Assembly (NCBI GenBank): GCA_964489065.1
Contig: CAZAXH010000004.1
Coordinates: forward strand, 82,553 to 146,552
Source: an uncultured Planctomycetales bacterium
GTDB lineage: Bacteria; Omnitrophota; Gorgyraeia; Zapsychrales; JANLHA01
DNA: 64,000 nucleotides
Reading direction: 5' to 3'
Of the stretch, positions 5,077 to 63,273 are shown piece by piece. Each line of letters starts with the position of its first letter. The first letter of the stretch is position 1. The notes below the pieces were generated by a model. The model was not told the origin of the DNA, did no database searches, and was given only the letters and a program-made list of their open reading frames with translations. Position numbers and translations under genes: made by a program.

Positions 5077-6342
5077 CTAAAACAAGGAAATTCCAAGTCC
5101 TTTTTTGTATTTGAACAAGCCCAATAGCCCTAGCAGAGTGAAGGTCCCTCCCACGCCCACCAAAATCCAGGTTCGGTCCACATATTCCGACAACAACGAG
5201 CTGGACAGCATCGCCACCAGAAACGCGAAATGGATGATAATCTCCAGCGAGCTGAACACCTTCCCCAGCATATTTTCGTCTGAAACAAGCAACGCAATCG
5301 TGTTGGCCGCGATGAAAACCGGGCCGATTACAAGCCCCAGAAAGAACGCCAGCGCCGCTGCCACAAGCAGTTGCGGATAAACCCTCACCATCAAGACAAA
5401 CAGGATCATCATCATGCCGCCCGCGAACAGGCAACAAAAAATCGTCTTGTGCCAGGGGATTTTCTTGCCCCAGCGGCCGTAAGCCAACGCGCCGACAAAA
5501 AGCCCCGCCCCGAGAAAGACGGCGAGGACGCCGAGGTCCCGGGTCACGCTTTTAAAACACTCCTGGATAAAAACAATAATGACCACGTACACCGCCCCGG
5601 CCGCGGCCATCAGGGTGAACAAAAGGTTGATCACAAACCGGATGCCGGGGTTGCGGGTGAGATATCGCACCCCTTCCTTAAGCTCCCGGACCACAGAACG
5701 TTCCAGGGCCAGGACTTCCTGCCCGGCCTGGATAAATTCTTTCCGGTCAAAATGCAAACGAAGATCATGAGGGATAGAAATCACAAGAAGACCCGACACA
5801 AAAAAAGTGACCGCGTTCACCACGAACCCGCCCCGTGCGCCGGTCCAGAAAACCAGGAACCCCCCAAACGCGCACCCGAAGACAAACGCCAGCATGCCGG
5901 TTGTGGTCATAAGGGAATTCGCCATGACCAGGTGTTCTTTTTCGACCAGTTCCGGAATGATCGACATCTTCGCCGGCACATAAAACCGGCTGAAGCAAAA
6001 AACCAAAAAGACAATAATATAAATAGGGATCAACGATTTCCAGACGATAAAAATCATCGGAATCAGCATCACCAGGACGCCCCGAGCGATGTCACAGAGG
6101 AACAGTGTTTTACGGTTTTCCCAGCGGTCTACATAAACGCCGGCGATGGGGCCCACGATAAAAACCGGGATGATCGTGAATGACAGGAGTTTGGCCAAAT
6201 CCATTGTTGAACCGGGGCTGCGCTCAGCAATAAGCCCTATCAAAGCCATCTGATTAATGCGGTCGCCGAACTGGGAAATCAGCTGCGCCAGCCATAACCG
6301 CATAAAAGGATAATTTTTCCGGTCAAAAATAAATTTTAACAT
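5077..6342 (-). CDS. MFS transporter
   Basis: About 12 TM helices and an MFS-type N-terminus (NYPFMRLWLAQLISQFGD). The track start at 6402 lies inside repeat copy A, so the start is moved to the internal Met (MLKF) at 6342. Confidence 0.75.
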   Translation of the reverse strand: MLKFIFDRKNYPFMRLWLAQLISQFGDRINQMALIGLIAERSPGSTMDLAKLLSFTIIPVFIVGPIAGVYVDRWENRKTLFLCDIARGVLVMLIPMIFIVWKSLIPIYIIVFLVFCFSRFYVPAKMSIIPELVEKEHLVMANSLMTTTGMLAFVFGCAFGGFLVFWTGARGGFVVNAVTFFVSGLLVISIPHDLRLHFDRKEFIQAGQEVLALERSVVRELKEGVRYLTRNPGIRFVINLLFTLMAAAGAVYVVIIVFIQECFKSVTRDLGVLAVFLGAGLFVGALAYGRWGKKIPWHKTIFCCLFAGGMMMILFVLMVRVYPQLLVAAALAFFLGLVIGPVFIAANTIALLVSDENMLGKVFSSLEIIIHFAFLVAMLSSSLLSEYVDRTWILVGVGGTFTLLGLLGLFKYKKGLGISLF

Positions 6343-6344
6343 GA

Positions 6345-6496
6345 TATGAAGCACTACGTTCCTATTAACAATTTGCCTCGAGGAATGGGCTGACTTCTTC
6401 ATATGCGTGCAGACATCCCCGAAGCAGAAGACCTTGTTATCCTCCCGCAGTCACCCCCGGGACTACCCGGGGTCTTCTGCGAAGGCGGATAAACAC
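6345..6496 (+). repeat. intergenic element family, copy A (5' box, hairpin GCAGAAGACC...GGTCTTCTGC, 3' tail GAAGGCGGATAAAC)
   Basis: The copy contains tatgaagcactacg, then aacaatttgcctcgaggaatgggctgacttcttcatatgcgtgcagacatccccgaagcagaagacc, a nested CCCCGGG/CCCGGGG hairpin, and ggtcttctgcgaaggcggataaac. It aligns to copies B-F. Confidence 0.7.
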
Positions 6497-6589
6497 TATC
6501 TAACCGGCCAAGCCGGGCACAACAGAAAAACCCTCTACAAGGCCGCCGGGACCGGGAGTATTATACATTTTTCTCCCCATGCCGGCCGT

Positions 6590-10155: not shown

Positions 10156-10184
10156 GCCCTTAAGGGACTTCCATACCGCTGGTT

Positions 10185-10349
10185 ATTGTGGAACCCACAC
10201 CGATGGGCGTGGGTACTGCTAACAATTCGCTTCGCGGAATGATCTGACTTTTTAACACATGTGAACATCCCCAGAGCAGAAGACCGTGTAACCCATTCGC
10301 CTTCATTCCGCGGGCGTGCCTATGGTCTTCCGCAAAGACGGATAAAACC
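10185..10349 (+). repeat. intergenic element family, copy B
   Basis: The copy reads tgtggaacccacaccgatgggcgtggg, then aacaattcgcttcgcggaatgatctgactttttaacacatgtgaacatccccagagcagaagacc, a loop, and ggtcttccgcaaagacggataaaacc. Confidence 0.7.
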
Positions 10350-10374
10350 ACGCAGGACACCGGGCAGGAAGAAC

Positions 10375-10662
10375 TCATCGCGGGACGTACGTGTTCTGCA
10401 GTTTCTTTTTATTATATGCGCTCGAGGCGCCCTGGACGCACCCAACGACCACCCCAAGCAATATCCACACAGCTGTTATCCCGATGCAAATTTTACCCCA
10501 GAGGATAAATTTTTTACCGATCGGGCTTAAAACCCCGAATTCATCCTTATTATTTTTTCCGGCAAAAATGAAAATGACACCGCATATCAACAGGACAACT
10601 TCCATAAAATCGGCTCCCGGATTTCTTCCCCCGCCCCCCTCATGGGTCGGACATCCTGCCAA
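10375..10662 (-). CDS. small hypothetical membrane protein (95 aa)
   Basis: Two predicted TM helices; no similarity recognised; weak support. Confidence 0.3.
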   Translation of the reverse strand: MAGCPTHEGGGGRNPGADFMEVVLLICGVIFIFAGKNNKDEFGVLSPIGKKFILWGKICIGITAVWILLGVVVGCVQGASSAYNKKKLQNTYVPR

Positions 10663-10691
10663 GACTGCAACGCCCGCTGTTAAAAAAAATA

Positions 10692-12666: not shown

Positions 12667-12849
12667 ACTGTTACTCCTTGTTTAGGCTACAGACAATTAT
12701 AAAATCTTAATTTCCCCTATCCTGCGGCCCCGGAATGGATCGGCCGGCTGTTCAAATAATAAACACAAATGTCATCCCGTTTTTTAAACTATCCGGGTTT
12801 CATTTCTTAGGCAACGGCATTGCATAAAAGCTCGGCATGCGTGAAATCA

Positions 12850-12960
12850 AAGGTATAACCCCAAAAGCAAACGCTGGACTTTCTTGCCCCGCGAATGCTC
12901 TTTGCCATTAAAAATTATACGTTAATTCCGGACGCCAATCAAAACAATTATACAAATTAC
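12850..12960 (+). repeat. degenerate remnant (copy H) of the intergenic element's promoter-proximal module
   Basis: ggtataaccccaaaagcaaacgctggac...gccccgcgaatgc...caatcaaaacaattatac aligns to the 62803-62860 part of copy E and to 22130-22180. The core hairpin is missing. Confidence 0.35.
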
Positions 12961-14599: not shown

Positions 14600-14807
14600 A
14601 TGGCCGTGGGTTTCCCGCGATAATAAAAAAATCTTGTCTGGGCCCTTGATTCATCACGTTACGCCTTCCCCCCGGGACATGGCAACAGATGACTCCACCG
14701 GGTTCGGCTGCGTCATTAGAAATGCAAACATCCCCGGGGCAAAAAACTTTGTGGACCCCTCGCATCCAGGGGCATGCCCGTGGCCTTCTGCTCATGGGGA
14801 TAAAACC
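14600..14807 (+). repeat. intergenic element family, copy F (divergent porin/MCP region)
   Basis: The copy reads ...ttagaaatgcaaacatccccggggcaaaaaac...ggggcatgcccgtggccttctgctcatggggataaaaccc. The 5' part is partly degenerate. Confidence 0.55.
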
Positions 14808-15063
14808 CAGCTTAATATCCGCATCTGTTTTCCCGGCCCCCGTCCTGAACCGCCCATATTTCTATAATCAATGAATGGTTCTGTTGTTAAAAAAGTTAAA
14901 ATTTTACATGCAAGTCTTTAAGAGGAGCGATATATTGAGTATGATGTTTTGAAAAGTGCGGACACAAAATTTCCCAAATAGTTTTGAAATTATAAATAGA
15001 GAATAATTATTGTGCCGTCTATTTCTTTGTTTCTTGATTTCAAAAACAGAAAAGAGAAGTGTT

Positions 15064-22102: not shown

Positions 22103-22124
22103 CAGCGGGAATTCTCCGGTCAAC

Positions 22125-22262
22125 AAAAAAGCATGAACCCCAAAGCAAGCCCTAGACCCAATGAACCGCAGCAACCTGCGGGGTATTACACACACATCCT
22201 TCGACCCGTTCGCCTGGCTCACTAATATTTTTCTCAGAGCCGGCGGCCTCTTCCCCCGGTCT
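22125..22262 (+). repeat. degenerate copy (G) of the intergenic element (promoter-proximal module plus decayed core)
   Basis: tgaaccccaaagcaagccctagacccaatgaaccgcagcaacctgcgggg is followed by catccttcgacc...ggtcttgggtgtattctaatggataagacggc. The first part aligns to copy E at 62803-62860. Confidence 0.4.
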
Positions 22263-22607: not shown

Positions 22608-22673
22608 ACACAAGTTTCAACATTTTAAATAAGAGTGGCGCAATTGTCAACAACTCTTATCAAAGACCGGCCA

Positions 22674-36690: not shown

Positions 36691-38274
36691 TCAGCCGATT
36701 TTTGTCCCGAAATTCTGTAACCACCGGTAAAGAGCCCGTGCCTGTTCGATCTTTAGCATAAAACATACACACCCGTAAACCAGGGCCCCCAGGATAACCG
36801 CTAACAGGAGCCGTATCATTTCATTCGGGACGCACGCCGTGTTCCATATCCGGCTGACCACCATCCCGGCCACGACCCCGGCCACGACAATCTTGGCGAC
36901 AAAAATTTTAAACCCGCCATCGATCCCCCCCAGCCGTTTGTCTAAACAATAAAAAAGCCAGATAAAATCAACCGATGCCGCGATGGAGCTGGCCAAAGCG
37001 ATGCCCCCCACCTTGAGCGGGATCATCAGCCCGAAATTTAAGACCGTGTTGATCACCAGACAGACCGCGGCAATCTTAACGGGGGTCTTGGTGTCCTGCA
37101 ACGCGTAAAAAGCGGTGACCAGAATCTTGATCCCCCCAAAACTGAACAGCCCGATCGAATAAAATAACAGCGCCCAAGAGCTGATCGTCGTGGAATAAGC
37201 CGTAAACTCGCCGCGCTCAAATAAAATCCGGATAATCGGATGAGCCAACAACATCAGCATAATACTAAAAGGAATCATAACAAAAAATATGCTCTCCAGG
37301 GTAAAGACAAGGGTTTTTTTGAGATGCGACAGGTCGTTCTGGGCGGCCAGGCCTGAAAGCGTGGGCAATGTGGCGGAAGCAAGCGCAAACCCGAAAACCC
37401 CCATGGGGAACTGGATAATCCGGTTGGCATAATAGATCGCCGATATCCCGCCCGCGCCCACGATGGAAGAAAGGGACGCGCAAAACGTATCAATAAAAAT
37501 ATTCAGCTGATACACGCCGGCTCCCACCACGCGCGGCAACAACAACCGCCCTACCCTGACCGCGGCGGGATGGTTCAACGGCAACGGGTTGTATATTTTG
37601 ACGCCGAGTTTCAACATCGGGCCAAGCTGCACCAACAGCTGCAAAAATCCCCCGGTTAAAACTCCAATGGCCAGACCGTACACCGGTTCCTTGAGAAAAC
37701 GGGATGACACAAGAGCGCTGATAATCATCGCGATATTAAGCAAACAGGGGCTGAACGCCGGAACTGTAAACAAGCGAAAAGAGTAAAGGAGGGCCATGGA
37801 ATAGGCGGTCAACCCGATTAAAAGAAGATACGGGAACATAATCCTGGTCAGACGAATCGTCAGGACCAATTTTTCCGTATGGGCCATAAACCCGGGGGCC
37901 ATCAGCCGCACGATATACGGCGACAGGAGTATCCCGAGGAAAGTCAATAAGGTCAAACACATCAGGGCCAGGGCCAGAATAACACTCACGAAACGCCAGA
38001 ACTCCCGGCGGTCTTTCTGGACAAGATACTCTGAAAACACGGGAACCACCGCGGAATTGGCCGCCCCTTCCCCCACAAAATCGCGGAAGAGATTAGGAAT
38101 TTTAAAAGCGACGAAAAACGCGTCGGCCTGAAATCCGGTGCCGAAAAATTTGGCCAAAATCACGTCCCGGACAAACCCCAGCACCCGGGACGCTAGGGTT
38201 CCGATAGAAATAATGGACGTGGATCTAAGCAAGGCCCCGTGGGAATCAGGCTGTCCGGAATTATTATTTGACAT
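36691..38274 (-). CDS. murJ: lipid II flippase MurJ
   Basis: The N-terminus LLRSTSIISIGTLASRVLGFVRDVILAKFFGTGFQADAFFVAFKIPNLFRDFVGEGAANSAVVPVFSEY is a canonical MurJ/MviN signature. 14 TM helices. Confidence 0.9.
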   Translation of the reverse strand: MSNNNSGQPDSHGALLRSTSIISIGTLASRVLGFVRDVILAKFFGTGFQADAFFVAFKIPNLFRDFVGEGAANSAVVPVFSEYLVQKDRREFWRFVSVILALALMCLTLLTFLGILLSPYIVRLMAPGFMAHTEKLVLTIRLTRIMFPYLLLIGLTAYSMALLYSFRLFTVPAFSPCLLNIAMIISALVSSRFLKEPVYGLAIGVLTGGFLQLLVQLGPMLKLGVKIYNPLPLNHPAAVRVGRLLLPRVVGAGVYQLNIFIDTFCASLSSIVGAGGISAIYYANRIIQFPMGVFGFALASATLPTLSGLAAQNDLSHLKKTLVFTLESIFFVMIPFSIMLMLLAHPIIRILFERGEFTAYSTTISSWALLFYSIGLFSFGGIKILVTAFYALQDTKTPVKIAAVCLVINTVLNFGLMIPLKVGGIALASSIAASVDFIWLFYCLDKRLGGIDGGFKIFVAKIVVAGVVAGMVVSRIWNTACVPNEMIRLLLAVILGALVYGCVCFMLKIEQARALYRWLQNFGTKIG

Positions 38275-38316
38275 TCAAAAGCCTCTCTGCTATAGTATGA
38301 AATTCAAAAGAAAGGA

Positions 38317-41187: not shown

Positions 41188-42759
41188 TCATGGCGCTCCC
41201 TCCGTTATTTGTCTTTTCCTTCGCCAGGCGACCCGCACCATGACGGCAATCATGGAAAAAATCAAAAACAACCCCACCCGGGTCGCCAAAATATAACCTT
41301 TATTCTCTGGAGCCACCTCTTCCATAAAAATAACCGGAAGCCATTTCTGGAAAAACCACGTCCCGAGAATAATCAGTAAAAAAACCGGGGTCACATATTT
41401 GATAATAAATTTATAAACCCGGGGGATCCGCATCTCCGCCCCCATATGGATCTCGTCCCAGGCGGCCTCCATACCCAAGACCCAGCTAAATAATATGGCT
41501 TCAATCGTCGCGAAAAGAACCAGAAAAAACGTGCCGCCCCAGAAATCCAACTCGTCCACAACTCCTCTCCCTAAGAACAGCACCGCTGGCTGGCATAATA
41601 TAAACGTCGCGGCAGCAAAGATGGCCACGGCTTTCTTCTTGGAAAGGTTAAATTCATCCTCCATAAAAGCGATAACCGGCTGCGCCAACGAAACCGAAGA
41701 GGTGATCCCCGCGATAAACAGCAGCAAAAACCAAAGAAAACTCAAGAAATCCGCTAACGGCAGGCGCTGCAAAATAAGCGGCATGGTGACATAGCTTAAG
41801 TTAAAAACTCCGGAGTCCGCTACAGCGCGAATCTCCATGGGCCCGAAAAAGACAAAGGCGGCAGGCACGACAATGCTGCCGCCTATAATGATCTCCGCGA
41901 TCTCGTTCATGCTGGCCGCCGTAAGGCCGGATAAAACAACGTCATCCGTCTTGGACAAATAACTCGCGTAGGTCAGGATAACCCCGATGCCGACACTCAA
42001 AGTAAACAAAATCTGCCCGGCCGCTTCCAACCAGACCTGGGCGGATTTAAGCGCGCTTAAATCCGGATTCCACAGAAACCCGAAGCCGTTTAAGACATTC
42101 CAGTCCGGCCGGCCGGGATCAGGGGCCCCCAAAGTCATCACCCGGATCATAAGCGCAAAGCCGCATAAAAATAGCGCAGGCATGGCCAACTTGCAGAGCC
42201 GTTCAATCCCGCCTTTAATTCCGTGATAAATAACAAAAATGTTCAAAATAAACGTAATGAAAAAAAACGTGTACGCCGGGGCAAGGCTTGAAAAAAACTG
42301 GTTTGTCGTCAATCCCTGGAAGGCATGGAGGAATCCCCTCATCTGGGTCTGATCGGTGACTTGGCTTAGCTTACCCGTCAGAGAAAAAAAACTGTACGCC
42401 AGAGACCACGACTCGATATAAAGATAATACATAAAAATAACGAGCGGGCCGAAAATGCCGATCACTCCGAAATACTTTATGAAGCGGTTTTTCCTGGCAA
42501 TGCTATGAAAGATACCCGGAGCCGTCCCATGCCCAAACCCGCCTCCAAACCGGCCTAATGTCCATTCGATCCACATCAGAGGAATCCCGATCAGAAGCAG
42601 AGAAACAAAATAGGGAATCATGAAAGCCCCACCGCCGTTCGCCACGGCTTTGGCCGGGAAACGCAGAAAATTCCCCAAGCCAACCGCCGAACCGGCGACC
42701 GCCAGAATAATGCCTATTTTAGAAGACCAGGTTTCTCTCTGTGGTTTTGGACCAGGCAT
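41188..42759 (-). CDS. sodium-dependent transporter, NSS (SNF) family
   Basis: AVAGSAVGLGNFLRFPAKA is the GxGNxWRFP NSS signature; 12 TM helices. The start is trimmed to MPGPKP (42759) because a consensus promoter (TTGACT-17-TATAAT, 42839-42867) lies inside the longer track ORF. Confidence 0.8.
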   Translation of the reverse strand: MPGPKPQRETWSSKIGIILAVAGSAVGLGNFLRFPAKAVANGGGAFMIPYFVSLLLIGIPLMWIEWTLGRFGGGFGHGTAPGIFHSIARKNRFIKYFGVIGIFGPLVIFMYYLYIESWSLAYSFFSLTGKLSQVTDQTQMRGFLHAFQGLTTNQFFSSLAPAYTFFFITFILNIFVIYHGIKGGIERLCKLAMPALFLCGFALMIRVMTLGAPDPGRPDWNVLNGFGFLWNPDLSALKSAQVWLEAAGQILFTLSVGIGVILTYASYLSKTDDVVLSGLTAASMNEIAEIIIGGSIVVPAAFVFFGPMEIRAVADSGVFNLSYVTMPLILQRLPLADFLSFLWFLLLFIAGITSSVSLAQPVIAFMEDEFNLSKKKAVAIFAAATFILCQPAVLFLGRGVVDELDFWGGTFFLVLFATIEAILFSWVLGMEAAWDEIHMGAEMRIPRVYKFIIKYVTPVFLLIILGTWFFQKWLPVIFMEEVAPENKGYILATRVGLFLIFSMIAVMVRVAWRRKRQITEGAP

Positions 42760-42838
42760 ACAGGAAATCCACAATCCTTGTTGGACCCCATTCAGAGGGC
42801 GGTTTTCAAAAGACGGAAACAGTAGTACAACTGGGAAG

Positions 42839-42867
42839 ATTATAAAACAACCCTTCCCTCCAGTCAA
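42839..42867 (-). promoter_or_regulatory. consensus sigma70-type promoter for the NSS transporter (TTGACT-17 nt-TATAAT)
   Basis: The minus strand reads ggcTTGACTggagggaagggttgtttTATAATcttccc. It lies about 70 nt upstream of the ATG at 42759 and is part of the promoter-proximal module of repeat copy D. Confidence 0.5.
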
Positions 42868-42914
42868 GCCAAACACCGGCCATTTGGCAGCGAAATTTTC
42901 TCAACCGCCGCTTC

Positions 42915-43052
42915 CTATAGGAGACCCCGCGCCCATAGGCATGGTTCCGAGGAACCATTCGCTTTGCGAGATGATCTATCTTTCTTAACATCCATGCAAA
43001 CATCCCCAACGCAGAAGACCACGGGCACGCCCGTGGTCTTCTGCGAAAACAG
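42915..43052 (+). repeat. intergenic element family, copy D (perfect 17-bp inverted repeat)
   Basis: ctataggagaccccgcgcccataggcatggttccgaggaacc is followed by attcgctttgcgagatgatctatctttcttaacatccatgcaaacatcccc. The hairpin is aacgcagaagaccacgggc-ac-gcccgtggtcttctgcg and the tail is aaaacagataagcagg. Confidence 0.7.
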
Positions 43053-43088
43053 ATAAGCAGGTCTTCCCGTCCTATCAGCTGCCCCGTG

Positions 43089-45188
43089 TTAAAACAACGA
43101 GACATTCATGACGAATGACGCGAAAACAATTGCAACAATCGACATGAGCTTAATAAGGACATTTAAACTCGGGCCTGAAGTATCCTTGAACGGATCGCCC
43201 ACCGTGTCTCCCACAACAGCGGCTTTATGCGCCTGAGACCCCTTGCCTCCATGATTGCCTTCTTCAATATATTTCTTGGCGTTATCCCAGGAGCCCCCGG
43301 CATTCGCCATCATAACCGCAAGCACAAAACCAGTCACCGTGGCGCCGGCCAACAACCCCATTTCCGCTTCCATCCCGATAAGAACGCCGGTTAAAACAGG
43401 CGCGACAATGGCCAGCAGCGAAGGAAGAATCATTTCTTTTTGCGCGGCGGCCGTGGCAATCGTGACACAGCGGGCATAATCGGGTTTGGCCTTCCCGTCC
43501 ATCAGACCGACGATTTCCTTAAATTGACGGCGCACTTCAACGACAATCATGCCGGCGGCCCGGCCCACGGCGCGCATCGTCATGGCACAGAACAAAAACG
43601 GCAGCATGCCTCCTATAAACAAACCGACGAGAAGATTGGGATTCAGCAGGCTGAGATTCATCGTTTTTCCCAATAAAACAACCTGGCTGTTAAAGGCCGC
43701 AATCAAGCCCAAGGCGGTTAACGCCGCGGACCCGATGGCAAAACCTTTTCCGGTGGCCGCGGTCGTGTTGCCGAGAGAATCCAGAGCATCGGTTCTTTTC
43801 CTGACTTCCGGCGGCAGGCCGGCCATTTCAGCGTTTCCTCCGGCATTGTCCGCCACCGGCCCATAAGCGTCCGTCGCCAGCGTGATCCCTAACGTGGACA
43901 GCATCCCGACGCCGGCAATAGCGATACCGTAAAGACCGGAATTAAAATTCGTGGCCCCGCCGGACAGAAAATAGCTGGCCAGGATCGCGACCCCGACAAC
44001 GAGAACCGGGAGCGCCGTGGACATCATCCCCACGGACAGGCCCGCGATGATGACCGTGGCCGGGCCGGTGAGAGATTGTTCTGCGATATATTTCGTCGGC
44101 TTAAAGTTACTGGACGTGTAATATTCCGTCACGACGCCGATGATGACCCCGGCCAGAAGGCCCGCCAAAACCGACCAATATACGCCCATATGCTCCACGC
44201 CTAAAATCCAACGGACAAGAAAATAAGAGACAAAGGCCATAAGGATCGAACTGCTCCATACGCCTTTTCTCAAGGCAGCCAATAACGCCTGCTGCGTCGC
44301 ATTCTCTTTTGTGCTCACGAAAAACGTGCCGATCACCGAGGCGATGATGCCCACGGCCGCCATGATCATGGGGACCATGACCCCGGCCACGCCTAACCCG
44401 GCCGCAACACCCAGCGCGCTCGTCGCGACAATAGACCCGACATAAGATTCAAAAAGATCCGCCCCCATCCCGGCGACGTCCCCGACGTTGTCTCCGACAT
44501 TGTCGGCAATAACCGCAGGATTGCGGGGGTCGTCTTCCGGAATCCCGGCCTCGACTTTACCGACCAGGTCAGCGCCGACATCCGCAGCCTTGGTAAAAAT
44601 TCCTCCGCCGACCCGGGCGAACAGGGCCAGGGAACTGGCGCCCATGCTAAAAGTCAGCATCGCCGAAGTGATGGCGGTAATCTTATCCATATTCACCGGA
44701 AGAGGATGGCCGGCATAATACCAATCCAGAAAATAATACCACGCCGTCAGGTGCAGCAGTCCCAGCCCTACCACGGTCAATCCCATGACCGCCCCGCTGG
44801 AAAAAGCCACCCGCAAACCCGAATTCAGGCTCTGCATAGCCGCCGCCGCGGTCCGGTTGGAGGATTGCGTGGCCACCGTCATGCCGATGAACCCTGAAAG
44901 GCCGGAAAAAAATCCGCCGGTTAAAAACGCGAACGGGACAAATATAACGACATATCCCTTAGAAGCCATCCACAACAAGACAACGAACATCACGGCAAAG
45001 AACAGCGACACGCCTAAATACTGGCGCTTGAGATAGGCCCGCGCCCCCAGCCGCACGGCCAAAGCGATCTCTTTCATCTTGTCGTTTCCCTCGTTCTCGC
45101 GCATGATGGAAAAGGCAAGATACAGCGCAAACAGCAACGCCCCGATTGAACAGACGGGTGCCAGAATAAAAAACCCGGAACCACTCAT
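43089..45188 (-). CDS. hppA: membrane-bound proton/sodium-translocating pyrophosphatase
   Basis: 699 aa; motifs [19 protein letters not shown] and [20 protein letters not shown]; about 16 TM helices. Confidence 0.9.
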
Positions 45189-46699: not shown

Positions 46700-46876
46700 A
46701 TTTATTCGCTTTCTATGGAGCCCCCCGCTTACGGGCATGTCCCTATCAACAATTCGCTTCGCGGAATGACCTGACTTCTTAACATACACGCGAACATCCC
46801 CGAAGCAAGTCGTTGTTAATCTCTTGCCTTCATCCGCGGGCATGCCCGTGGTCTTCTGCGAAGGCGTATAAAATAC
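46700..46876 (+). repeat. intergenic element family, copy C
   Basis: tatggagccccccgcttacgggcatgtccc is followed by tatcaacaattcgcttcgcggaatgacctgacttcttaacatacacgcgaacatccccgaagc. Then come a degenerate arm, gcgggcatgcccgtggtcttctgcgaaggcgtataaaatacc. Confidence 0.7.
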
Positions 46877-48453
46877 CGGCACACAAAGCCCAGCAACAGA
46901 AGCAGATAATATAAAACGACCCCCCAAAACGGAACCCGGCTCAATTCAATATAGGCCCCGGGAATCCCGGCAAAGAAATCTACGCTCGCCACCATAAAAT
47001 TCAACAAAAGCACAAGGCAATTCGCGAAAGAAAACGCCAAGAACGGGCAAAGGCCCCCCACCAGCAAAAGTCCCAGACCCAAATAGATCATAATGGAAGC
47101 TACCGGAACGATCACGATATTTGCAATCATAACAACCGGTGTTACTAAACGAAAGTAATACGCGATCAACGGCCCCACAAAAACGTAAACCGCCCCAGAA
47201 AGGGCTATGGGCTGCAAAAGATATCTCATCCCAAACGTCTGGAAACAACCCCAACCTCCTGCCACGCCCGGTTTCGCGCCCCGGGCCGTTCCGGACGCGA
47301 TCCCAAACCCCGAAAACGGCTTACGCACGAAATTCAGGACCTCCGGATACAACACATAAATCGCAAGGACACTGATGAAAGACAGCTGGAACCCGACATC
47401 ATAAAGACTCCAAGGGTTGATCAATAAAATAATGAAGGCGGCCAAAGCCAGGCTGTTTAACGGGTCCGGCTCCCGTTCAACAAGCAATCCTATCAGAAAG
47501 ACGACCGCCATAATGGTGGCCCGGACCACCGACGGCTGCCCTCCGGTCAGGACGGCATAAAAAATCAACAGCGCAACGGTGAGCAGATACTGCCCCCGCC
47601 GCGGGATAGGGAACATTTTCAAAAAAAACAATATCCCATATGCGACAATGCCGATATTAAACCCGGATATCGCGATAATATGCGCCACTCCGGAAAATTG
47701 AAAATGGACATACACCTCTTTGGGAATCTCGCTGCGGTCCCCTAACAGAAACGCCTGCATAATGCCGGCCGCTTCTTCCGGCAAACTTCCCTTTAAAATT
47801 CTTCTTAATTGATGTTTGAGGCGAAAGACTCCCTCCAGAAGGACGTGGCCACGGCCTTGTTTCAATTTTTCCAGGCGTCCGGTTTTCTTAACGCTCAGGA
47901 TAAACAAAATGCCTTTGCGGGCGAGATACTCCCGGTAGGAAAAACGTCCACCTCTTGAAAAATTGAAAGGCCGGTGCAATGTCCCTTCCAGGATCAGATA
48001 ATCCCCGTACTGAACAGCTTCCTGCCGAAAAAGGTTCACCAGGACCCGGCCCCTGTTCCCTTCCCAGCCCTGCTTTGATTGAACCCGCTCAAGTTCCAAC
48101 ACAAACACTGTTTTTTCCCGGCCGAAAAAATCACGGTTCTCCGCGTCGGACACCACCACGCCTTCCGCCAGGACGCTGTCCTGGCGGGCCCAGGACGGCA
48201 TACGGCCCACATGGCCGGCGGGAAGTCTCTGACAATTCCTGAAATAAACCGTCCCCCAACACATCACGGCCGACAAAAGCAAAACAGTGGACAGCGTTGC
48301 CGCCCGGGCCCACAGGCTCATGAGCAACAAAAATACAGTAAGAACAAATAAAATCGCTCCCGAAACCTTAAAGCATTGGTCAAAGACAATGCCCAGAATA
48401 AAGCACAGGCAAACCCCTAACAAAGGACGGCGGGAAAAAACGGGGTCCATCAT
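46816..48453 (-). CDS. comEC: DNA internalization-related competence protein ComEC/Rec2 (no C-terminal beta-lactamase-fold domain)
   Basis: DUF4131-like N-terminus plus Competence domain (LLGDRSEIPKEVYVHFQFSGVAHIIAISGFNIGIV...). The last ~16 codons (..RLRRRPRACPRMKARD) are encoded by repeat copy C. Confidence 0.75.
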   Translation of the reverse strand: MMDPVFSRRPLLGVCLCFILGIVFDQCFKVSGAILFVLTVFLLLMSLWARAATLSTVLLLSAVMCWGTVYFRNCQRLPAGHVGRMPSWARQDSVLAEGVVVSDAENRDFFGREKTVFVLELERVQSKQGWEGNRGRVLVNLFRQEAVQYGDYLILEGTLHRPFNFSRGGRFSYREYLARKGILFILSVKKTGRLEKLKQGRGHVLLEGVFRLKHQLRRILKGSLPEEAAGIMQAFLLGDRSEIPKEVYVHFQFSGVAHIIAISGFNIGIVAYGILFFLKMFPIPRRGQYLLTVALLIFYAVLTGGQPSVVRATIMAVVFLIGLLVEREPDPLNSLALAAFIILLINPWSLYDVGFQLSFISVLAIYVLYPEVLNFVRKPFSGFGIASGTARGAKPGVAGGWGCFQTFGMRYLLQPIALSGAVYVFVGPLIAYYFRLVTPVVMIANIVIVPVASIMIYLGLGLLLVGGLCPFLAFSFANCLVLLLNFMVASVDFFAGIPGAYIELSRVPFWGVVLYYLLLLLGFVCRYFIRLRRRPRACPRMKARD

Positions 48454-48803: not shown

Positions 48804-49180
48804 AAGGATTTCACCTTTCCATAAGTTAATAGGAGAACTAGCGGGGGTATTAATAAAAGAATAGGGAAGGCTTGCAGGAAAGTTTATTTAATCTTACCAA
48901 AAAAGTTGTGCGTGTCAAAAAATTTTTCACGCCGGCGAAAATATCCTGTGACCTCATTGACACAAAAACGAAATCCCTGGCCGAGGGGGGTATGGGGCCG
49001 CGCCTATATTTGCCGAAAGGCGGCCTTCCGGCGTTAAAAACTCTTGCTTAAGTCCAGGCCTTCCCTTATCATAAAATTTATTCTATGAATTTCAGAAGAA
49101 TCAGGACCAGCCCCTGACTCCGCGAGGCAAAGATTCCGTCCGGGGGCCACAAATCTTTGGGATGAAAAACAACAACAGCC

Positions 49181-62591: not shown

Positions 62592-62795
62592 TCAGAAGCC
62601 GCAGAACTTCAAAAACACCAGCAAAAACGCCGCAATCAAAACACTTATAAGGATGGCCCGGGAAGACCATTTATATTTCATTTTGCCAAAAATACCGTCT
62701 CCGGCCCGATGCAGGCTTTCACCGCAAAAATGACACAAGAGGGCATCGTTATCATAAATCGGTTTCTTGCAATGAGGACAGATATACTCAGACAT
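62592..62795 (-). CDS. small zinc-ribbon membrane protein
   Basis: CPHC...CHFC zinc ribbon followed by one C-terminal TM helix; 67 aa. Confidence 0.4.
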   Translation of the reverse strand: MSEYICPHCKKPIYDNDALLCHFCGESLHRAGDGIFGKMKYKWSSRAILISVLIAAFLLVFLKFCGF

Positions 62796-62799
62796 AAAT

Positions 62800-63031
62800 C
62801 AAAGGTATAAACCCAAAAGCAAGCCCTGGACCCCATTAACCGCAGCAAACTGCGAGAAAGCAACAGCGGCGCCGGGTATGGAGCACCACGCCCTGCTCCC
62901 TGTTAATAATTCCCTTCGCAGGATGAACGCACCCCTTCACATACGTGCGAACATTCCCGAAGCAAAACACCTTATCAAACCCTTGCCTCCACCCACGGGC
63001 ATGCCCACACTCTTCTGCGAAAACGGATAAA
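62800..63031 (+). repeat. intergenic element family, copy E (full composite: promoter-proximal module plus core)
   Basis: ggtataaacccaaaagcaagccctggaccccattaaccgcagcaaactgcgagaaagcaacagcggcgcc, then gggtatggagcaccacgccctgctccc, then tgttaataattcccttcgcaggatgaacgcaccccttcacatacgtgcgaacattcccgaagc. Then a degenerate arm, cacgggcatgcccacactcttctgcgaaaacggataaaccc. Confidence 0.7.
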
Positions 63032-63273
63032 CCCCTGCATTTGGAAAGGTATTATCTCACTTGAGGTCCGTAAAGTCAAAAAATAATCTGTATTGTTTTC
63101 CCCTTCCTGGGGATATCCGGACGGCAAGAAAAACAGCCCCTTGCGTGCCGGAAACGCAGGACAGGGGTCCTTAGTTCACCGCCTTTATCTATTTGCAAAT
63201 TATTTAAAAATATTCTAAAATGGCTCAGTATCATACAGGAATGTCTCCTCTTAACAACAGGACTCTTTATAGC

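Follow-up and report, generated by a model that had tools for sequence, protein, structure and literature searches.

Structured intergenic repeats in one Candidatus Omnitrophota lineage: a perfect palindrome upstream of an NSS transporter gene as the fused stems of a repeat copy

ERIC and the BOX repeats of Streptococcus pneumoniae are structured, non-coding intergenic repeats of 100-200 nt, modular in build and restricted to particular lineages; ERIC is present at low copy number in some genomes, and the means by which ERIC and BOX spread are unclear. REP units are shorter (20-40 nt), with hundreds of copies that are frequently arranged in inverted pairs, and they flank a RAYT gene. We describe here a repeat of comparable kind in a 64 000-nt stretch of an uncultured Candidatus Omnitrophota bacterium (contig CAZAXH010000004.1, positions 82 553 to 146 552; hereafter the window, in the coordinates of which all positions are given), where one copy of it, copy D, contains a perfect palindrome and lies between the genes for a proton-translocating pyrophosphatase and an NSS/SNF-family sodium-dependent transporter. 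The repeat resembles ERIC and BOX in being intergenic, structured, modular with internal insertions and deletions (indels) and lineage-restricted, but it has no sequence relation to them, is not one long imperfect palindrome, is present in ~6-10 copies per genome with a single orientation, and belongs to Candidatus Omnitrophota. With REP units and the BIMEs it shares GC-rich extragenic palindromes that follow stop codons and can form stable RNA stem-loops, whereas its units are 165-180 nt long, the window has six copies in one orientation, and no transposase was found among the window open reading frames (ORFs) scanned with Pfam. Our preferred explanation, to which we give a probability of about 0.6, is that the palindrome is the remnant, in copy D, of a lineage-specific selfish or formerly mobile repeat of the REP/ERIC/BOX type, that a separate sigma-70 promoter serves the transporter gene, which begins at ATG 42759, and that the hairpin may have a role at the 3' end of the pyrophosphatase transcript. 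Taken as a whole, the repeats make up a new family of structured sequences between genes, ordinary in appearance and found in one Omnitrophota lineage, and not a new regulatory device.

The palindrome occupies positions 43010..43045 and reads CGCAGAAGACCACGGGC-AC-GCCCGTGGTCTTCTGCG, i.e. a perfect 17-bp inverted repeat, as had been pointed out in an earlier note made on this sequence; it is far above chance (0.14 matches expected in shuffled sequences at <=3 mismatches). Because a 2-nt loop cannot form, the effective hairpin has a 16-bp stem and a 4-nt loop, and the hairpin domain folded as RNA gives -38.8 kcal/mol (z = -6.0). It is not a free-standing element. The 36-nt palindrome corresponds to two stems, P1 and P2, of a larger multi-hairpin repeat, joined coaxially; copy D of that repeat covers 42907..43067 on the minus strand (covariance model R1, 42907-43067, 124.8 bits; nhmmer, 42916-43057, E = 2e-34). 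That the hairpin is the core of one member of a repeat family, as the note had proposed, is supported by repeat finding, nhmmer and the covariance model. Copy D is a deletion derivative: an internal gap of ~23 nt appears in three alignments, and the ~23-nt AUGAAGGCGAGnGGUUnACAAGG of the full copies is absent at the junction 43018..43019 (minus strand; alignment A6, columns 50-73), the placement of which is ambiguous within a GG repeat. Since the missing part is exactly the loop (J) that lies on one side between the two stems in full copies, P1 is stacked directly on P2 and the palindrome runs on without a break. Loop J was lost through a deletion between GG repeats. The same ~23-nt deletion is present at the corresponding locus (L015) of the sister genome DAOOLG01, which has ~91% nucleotide identity to the window, and it therefore predates the split of the two lineages. 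Copy D had been described as the cleanest, minimal core; the perfect palindrome stands, while a minimal or ancestral form it is not, being the product of a deletion. At its other end a remnant of the last hairpin, P4, is recognizable as CCATGCC-TATG-GGCGCGG (42927..42944, minus strand; alignment A6).

The repeat unit is ~165-180 nt long, folds into several hairpins and is found between genes. Repeat finding, nhmmer and the covariance model R1 agreed on six copies in the window, each of which reads on the minus strand: besides D these are A (6334..6503, without P4), B (10176..10356), C (14639..14814, in a divergent intergenic region), E (46703..46882) and H (62866..63041). Eight copies had been implied before; the covariance model gave no further copy in the window at E <= 10, and the two formerly labelled F and G were not found. 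Read in the gene-sense direction, the 5' part of the consensus is UUUAUCCGCCUUC-GCAGAAGACC-ACGGGC-AU-GCCCGU-GG-AUGAAGGCGAGnGGUUnACAAG-GUCUUCUGC-UUC-GGGGAUG, and it continues as ...CAUUCCGCGAAGC...CCACGCC-loop-GGCGUGG-GGCUCCAUA. The layout is P0-P1-P2 with the one-sided loop J, then P3, then P4. In the outer stem P0, UAUCCgCC pairs with GGGGAUG; P1, formed by GCAGAAGAC and GUCUUCUGC, encloses both the P2 hairpin and the ~23-nt loop J; P3 is an alternative to P0 in which the same GGGGAUG pairs with CAUUCC...CGAA; and P4 is the 3' hairpin. In the P0/P1/P2/P4 consensus structure 89.7% of the cells are paired. Copies differ from one another by whole modules, with J missing from D, P4 missing from A, and extra hairpins added within loops at loci L006 and L010. 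These additional hairpins lie in the loops of P3 and P4 and leave the flanking stems intact (L006, 2853-3094; L010, 1294-1570). Two further ideas were discarded: the repeat as a coding sequence, which is ruled out by the 1-nt and 2-nt indels between copies, and a pseudoknot between CGCCUUC of the 5' flank and GAAGGCG of loop J, which by eye is not kept in A, C, L002 and L010.

The family was then followed in other genomes. A gapped pattern scan of 185 579 species genomes gave matches only in metagenome-assembled genomes (MAGs) of Candidatus Omnitrophota, plus one chance hit; the same scan, applied to the metagenomes of JGI and ENA, contributed a single diverged copy, L010, and otherwise duplicates of one such MAG. 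No match was obtained in plasmids, phages or viral contigs. Rfam 15, searched at gathering thresholds over the window, returned just two tRNAs, E-value searches of Rfam with copies D and E gave nothing relevant, and nothing relevant was found in a literature search on Omnitrophota repeats; the family thus appears to be uncatalogued so far. The MAG JAGOJP01, which is 92-95% identical to the window over the aligned blocks, has four pattern matches (as has a sludge metagenome that duplicates it) and one more copy detected by nhmmer; four of these five are orthologous to copies A, B, C and H of the window. From these counts the family is a low-copy one, with probably fewer than ~10 members per genome. 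DAOOLG01, JAGOJP01 and DAOWGP01 all belong to the clade, and the organism of the window is present in the sequencing runs SRR15237810 and SRR21822500. More distant Omnitrophota NSS loci are devoid of the repeat. A search for empty sites by way of the NSS homologues yielded a single locus without repeat in which the pyrophosphatase and NSS genes are adjacent (L018), the others (L017, L021 and L022) being non-syntenic. There the spacer is 68 nt (1313-1384) against 330 nt in the window, a comparison made between loci too diverged to be aligned across the spacer; it points to the repeat and the promoter-bearing segment as lineage-specific additions, and suggests an ancestral pyrophosphatase-NSS gene pair that was split later.

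Orthologous copies (the window and two relatives) are 84.9% identical, compared with 89.2% at the four-fold degenerate sites of the adjacent genes. Among the stem pairs that changed between orthologues, 10 were kept paired and 11 were broken, which is the level of unconstrained transitions, and paired columns changed somewhat less than unpaired ones (9.8% versus 16.1%). Covariation across 15 copies was weak, with double changes in 5 pairs (9 cells). Such neutral divergence argues that most copies, D included, are probably decaying passengers. A selfish or formerly mobile nature would in addition account for the location of the repeats of different lineages at non-orthologous sites, for the indel variants, for the overlap of copy E with comEC and for an IS110-family insertion sequence (IS) that struck one copy (see below); together with the near-synonymous drift and the lack of preference for maintained base pairs, these are the grounds on which we favour it.

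Several observations weigh against this selfish-repeat interpretation. We found neither a transposase nor terminal inverted repeats, and no target-site duplication or clean empty site either, so that the mobility of the repeat and its mechanism are inferred. Copies are very few, and the majority of those known come from one 64-kb region, which is unusual for REP or for miniature inverted-repeat transposable elements (MITEs). Among paralogues, one-sided stem changes gave more G-U than A-C on the gene-sense strand (39 versus 19 cells, one invariant pair excluded); the stems tolerate insertions in their loops; the relation between the repeat strand and the neighbouring genes is the same at 10 of 10 independent loci; and a start codon directly follows the repeat in A, in its orthologue and in L005. 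These last four features would also fit a transcribed, structured RNA. Copy D itself adds another: between the window and L015 the 28 core stem bases are all unchanged, an outcome with a chance of ~0.004-0.04, while the remainder of the copy is ~18% diverged. The differences that do affect the hairpin are, at the foot of the stem, one compensatory G-C to A-T replacement and one broken pair, and, in the loop, a GT/AC flip. The invariant core hints at a constraint on the hairpin, and the pattern of changes is that expected of a hairpin under maintenance, or of a palindrome that corrects itself. Lastly, the sequence that follows the stem of copy D (UUGGGGAUGUUU in the window, UUUUGGAGAUGUUU in L015) contains no U-tract, which is unfavourable to the 3'-end role included in our explanation. 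Consequently, a structured-RNA role and an origin as a single-strand transposon remain rivals, and we hold the selfish-repeat reading with moderate confidence.

The first of these rivals is a functional cis-acting RNA leader. The repeat would be transcribed with the downstream gene, its GGGGAUG would toggle between UAUCCgCC (P0) and CAUUCCgCG (P3), and this two-state fold would control translation of the next gene, or read-through into it; copy D would be a disabled version, locked in one state. Pairing in the alignment is consistent with such a switch, as P0 and P3, although mutually exclusive, are both well paired (101 of 105 and 134 of 150 cells, respectively). So are the G-U excess on the sense strand, the survival of the stems after loop insertion, the constant orientation relative to the neighbouring genes, and the position of some start codons: those of A, of its orthologue and of L005 adjoin the repeat at its 3' end, those of B and L003 are 29-47 nt away from it, and no Shine-Dalgarno sequence is obvious. 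On the other side, the divergence of orthologous copies equals or exceeds the synonymous rate, breakage is as frequent as retention among their changed pairs, and compensatory changes on both sides of a stem are as few as indicated above. In C, D, E and H the next start codon is 170-800 nt away and, for D, a separate promoter intervenes; in L010 the copy precedes a convergent IS110-family element instead of a co-oriented gene. The downstream genes, for their part, are functionally unrelated: they encode MFS, TPR, hypothetical, NSS, CitMHS, LepA, pilin-like and Fe-S oxidoreductase proteins, and one further copy is followed by a small ORF and then by an S-adenosylmethionine decarboxylase gene, so that no functional theme emerges. 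The distance from repeat to start codon goes from 0 to ~80 nt when the nearest small ORF is considered, and up to ~350 nt for the nearest Pfam-supported gene. With no Rfam family, weak covariation and unrelated downstream genes, the repeat differs from known riboswitches and cis-acting RNA leaders; the unrelated genes led us to reject a riboswitch or regulon, and we regard an RNA leader as unlikely.

The second rival is a more specific version of our own explanation: the repeat would derive from a non-autonomous single-strand transposon of the IS200/IS605 or RAYT type, with a Y1 transposase acting in trans, which would recognize P2 and P4 and insert the element, in a single orientation and on the 3' side of a TTAT-like target, into the template of the lagging strand. 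P2 and P4, near the two ends of the repeat, have CCAYG...CRYGG stems that resemble each other (e.g. CCACGGGCATGCCCGTGG and CCACGGCTTTAGCCGTGG in L005), as the subterminal hairpins of an IS200/IS605-derived element would, and no terminal inverted repeats are apparent by eye; the likeness between the two stems is short, though, and could be due to chance. The 5' boundary always carries TTAT. G is enriched on the sense strand, taken as the leading one, at 10 of 10 independent loci (skew of +0.09 to +0.18), but this strand bias is here inseparable from gene orientation. Moreover, the Pfam scans, which covered part of the ORFs of the window and of the loci, showed no Y1 transposase, and the copy number is very low. 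We consider this origin, too, to be rather improbable. Along the window itself the plus strand has a negative GC skew throughout (-0.11 to -0.18) and almost every gene is read from the minus strand, which places the window within one replichore with a strong bias of genes to one strand. The repeat also differs from a MITE, since its 5' end, TTTATCCGCC, and its reverse-complemented 3' end, TTATGGAGCC, share only TTAT..CC (by eye, alignment A6). Were either rival correct, the repeat would be an undescribed Candidatus Omnitrophota module, namely a two-state (P0/P3) leader or RNA module that has spread to a few unrelated genes and acts on the translation starts adjoining its 3' end, or else a new hairpin-ended, orientation-specific, non-autonomous mobile element with an unseen partner enzyme, copy D being in both cases a naturally locked mutant. 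This would be of moderate interest, and we think it a long way from probable.

The selfish-repeat interpretation is in line with what was seen at L010, where an IS110-family element (96-1300, with DEDD_Tnp_IS110 and Transposase_20 domains) has its right end set against P4 of a diverged copy. This right end (...TTGACACAACTATTCATAGTAGC) is conserved and shared with independent copies of the IS in L031, L032 and L023; in L031 the same end abuts another GC-rich palindrome, GGGCACGGTGCCC, and related IS110-family copies on other contigs have no repeat alongside. Since the conserved end of the IS reaches no further than the repeat, and related elements have none beside them, the repeat is an insertion target and not a part of the IS. 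The situation is reminiscent of IS621, ISPpu9 and ISPpu10, members of the IS110 family that insert into REP sequences (PMC11208160, PMC12288879). It also recalls MITEPpu9/ssr9 of Pseudomonas putida, a non-autonomous, RNA-structured element present in eight copies, alone or next to an IS110-family transposase gene (PMC12288879). Our repeat is similarly a low-copy, RNA-structured module, but it is a target and not a passenger, as the right end of the L010 element stops at it. No IS110 gene is present in the window, and the possibility that the repeat belongs to an IS110 element, including as its bridge RNA or seekRNA, was rejected: L010 is the only locus with such a gene nearby, whereas a bridge RNA or seekRNA lies within the IS, beside the DEDD recombinase gene.

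Downstream of copy D the minus strand carries a sequence of the E. coli sigma-70 type, TTGACT (-35 box, 42862..42867) and TATAAT (-10 box, 42839..42844) with a 17-nt spacer, facing the NSS gene. It matches the consensus at 11 of 12 positions and, as the earlier note had recognized, is very likely the promoter of that gene. In a scan of the whole window only three sites reached 11/12 (0.57 expected in shuffles), all of them just upstream of genes. The other two are TTGACA-17-TAAAAT, directly upstream of the tRNA-Phe gene (22622-22650, minus strand), and TTGACA-17-TATAGT, which has a TG extension and precedes rpsT by 30 nt (38268-38296, plus strand); 10/12 sites at 48918 and 40888 likewise precede gene starts. 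Because the top-scoring sites all stand before genes, the organism evidently uses canonical sigma-70 promoters, and the well-supported NSS promoter extends the use of such textbook promoters to an uncultivated Omnitrophota lineage. There is nothing unusual in this one: its -10 box comes to an end 80 nt ahead of ATG 42759, and transcription is predicted to start near A42832, leaving a 5' untranslated region of ~73 nt (42760..42832, minus strand). Conservation with L015, the single relative compared, is sharply unequal along this segment. Copy D and the spacer between repeat and promoter are 82% and 81% identical (i.e. 18-19% diverged), whereas the block from -35 to -10 has 28 of 29 bases identical, the TTGACT included; the distal 47 nt of the predicted leader (42813-42767) are identical at 46 positions, which exceeds the conservation of four-fold degenerate sites. 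This contrast argues that promoter and leader are under constraint. The distal leader has no Rfam match and its fold is not unusually stable.

The promoter lies in unique DNA and is no part of the repeat, of which copy D has its 3' end at 42916, 49 nt before the -35 box. It had previously been placed 50-80 nt from the hairpin and described as fused to it; the -35 box is actually 143 nt from the hairpin, the 49 nt in between repeat and promoter are unique, and nothing in the data indicates functional coupling of the two. More was proposed in the note, namely that hairpin and promoter form one mobile or duplicated cassette of which E, G and H would have degraded versions. The proximity of the repeat and a strong promoter at the D locus is in keeping with a cassette, as are a TTGACC 27 nt past the end of copy A and a weak TTGTAT-16-TACAAT at copy E. 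However, the 156 nt of promoter and leader between copy D and the NSS ATG matched the window only through 9-12-mers at E >= 0.45 (blastn-short), and nhmmer gave no hit in the window below E = 6. When the 120 nt downstream of D were aligned locally with the same stretch after A, B, C, E and H, similarity was that of shuffled sequences (p = 0.35-0.97), and in the multiple alignments all conservation vanishes right after the 3' end of the repeat (...GGCUCCAUA). The alignment with a promoter-proximal module of E, G and H thus amounts to chance-level matches, and conservation relative to L015 is, as seen above, very different for the two supposed halves of the cassette. Since nothing downstream of the other copies, or in the rest of the window, resembles the promoter segment, we rejected the cassette, which has hardly any likelihood left.

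As for the NSS gene, the mechanical ORF (562 aa) opens with a GTG at 42876, and the promoter lies inside its 5' part, as the note had remarked in proposing the internal Met at 42759 as the true start. That proposal proved right. The 120 best homologues are 515-544 aa long (mostly 518-523) and cover 90-93% of the 562-aa ORF; the nine that were aligned all begin within 4 residues of Met 42759, four of them exactly there, and none has a counterpart of the 39-residue extension, so that the longer N-terminus is not conserved. Public assemblies with an identical protein have it called at 523 aa, and in L015, where the NSS protein is 97% identical, an in-frame TAA is found 12 nt upstream of the ATG. 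From the homologue starts, the public calls and the L015 stop codon, the re-called start is secure: the gene (Pfam PF00209) extends over 41188..42759 on the minus strand and encodes 523 instead of 562 aa, and the 39 codons of 42760..42876 (minus strand) are a spurious, non-coding extension that holds the promoter. This corrected start is the practical result of the analysis.

On its other side the hairpin follows the pyrophosphatase gene (43089..45188, minus strand; Pfam PF03030, E = 6e-271), the stop codon of which is separated from copy D by 22-32 nt and from the hairpin by 44 nt. If copy D has any present-day role, the most plausible would be at the 3' end of the pyrophosphatase transcripts: the stem-loop would form 44 nt past the stop codon and could protect that end, or terminate transcription without a U-tract, the NSS gene being then left to its own promoter. 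This is the weakest step of the explanation. A very stable GC-rich stem-loop at such a distance from a stop codon resembles an intrinsic terminator but lacks the U-rich tract, and a simple scan of 42500-43300 called no terminator-like site; in the region canonical terminators are not enriched (34 versus 31.7 in shuffles).

Alternatively, the palindrome could be a protein-binding operator, or a similar DNA site, regulating the NSS or the pyrophosphatase gene. Its perfect dyad symmetry and a stem core that is unchanged in the sister genome amid changed surroundings are what one would expect of such a site, but the symmetry is already explained by the P1/P2 origin, and the other copies have the two stems apart, at unrelated genes. 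The palindrome is also 143 nt upstream of the -35 box, and the changes at the stem foot and in the loop fit a hairpin and not a sequence-specific site. An operator is therefore a very unlikely reading of the palindrome, and we retain that of a repeat remnant.

The repeat disturbs ORF calling at several loci of the window: besides the NSS start, the MFS start and the comEC end are affected. The comEC frame (46816-48453, minus strand) enters copy E by ~57-66 nt and stops there, at 46816, the affected stretch being 46816-46882; of its 545 residues, those up to about 530 are homologous to another Omnitrophota ComEC. The MFS ORF (5077-6402) is over-extended into copy A, and its likely start is ATG 6342, directly after the repeat (...CAUAUC-AUG). 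In L005 the repeat end, ...GGGGCUCCAUA-AUG, abuts the start of a 161-aa ORF (coordinates are L005 2526, L004 7255 and window 6342-6402); neither the MFS nor the L005 start site has an obvious Shine-Dalgarno sequence. Copy B ends 29 nt upstream of the start of the TPR-protein gene, for which no sigma-70-like promoter was found, and the ~345 nt between tRNA-Thr and this copy (10348-10691) contain no convincing ORF. A second, unrelated short repeat, GTCCAGsGyTTGCTTTTGGGGTTATACCTTTGATTT in the minus-strand reading, is present at 62796-62854, 22122-22180 and 12844-12879, preceded in two of these copies by a CGCAG-TTTG-CTGCG hairpin. The copy at 62796 ends at the ATG of a 67-aa zinc-ribbon-like ORF (62592-62795), and the others are also located just upstream of genes.

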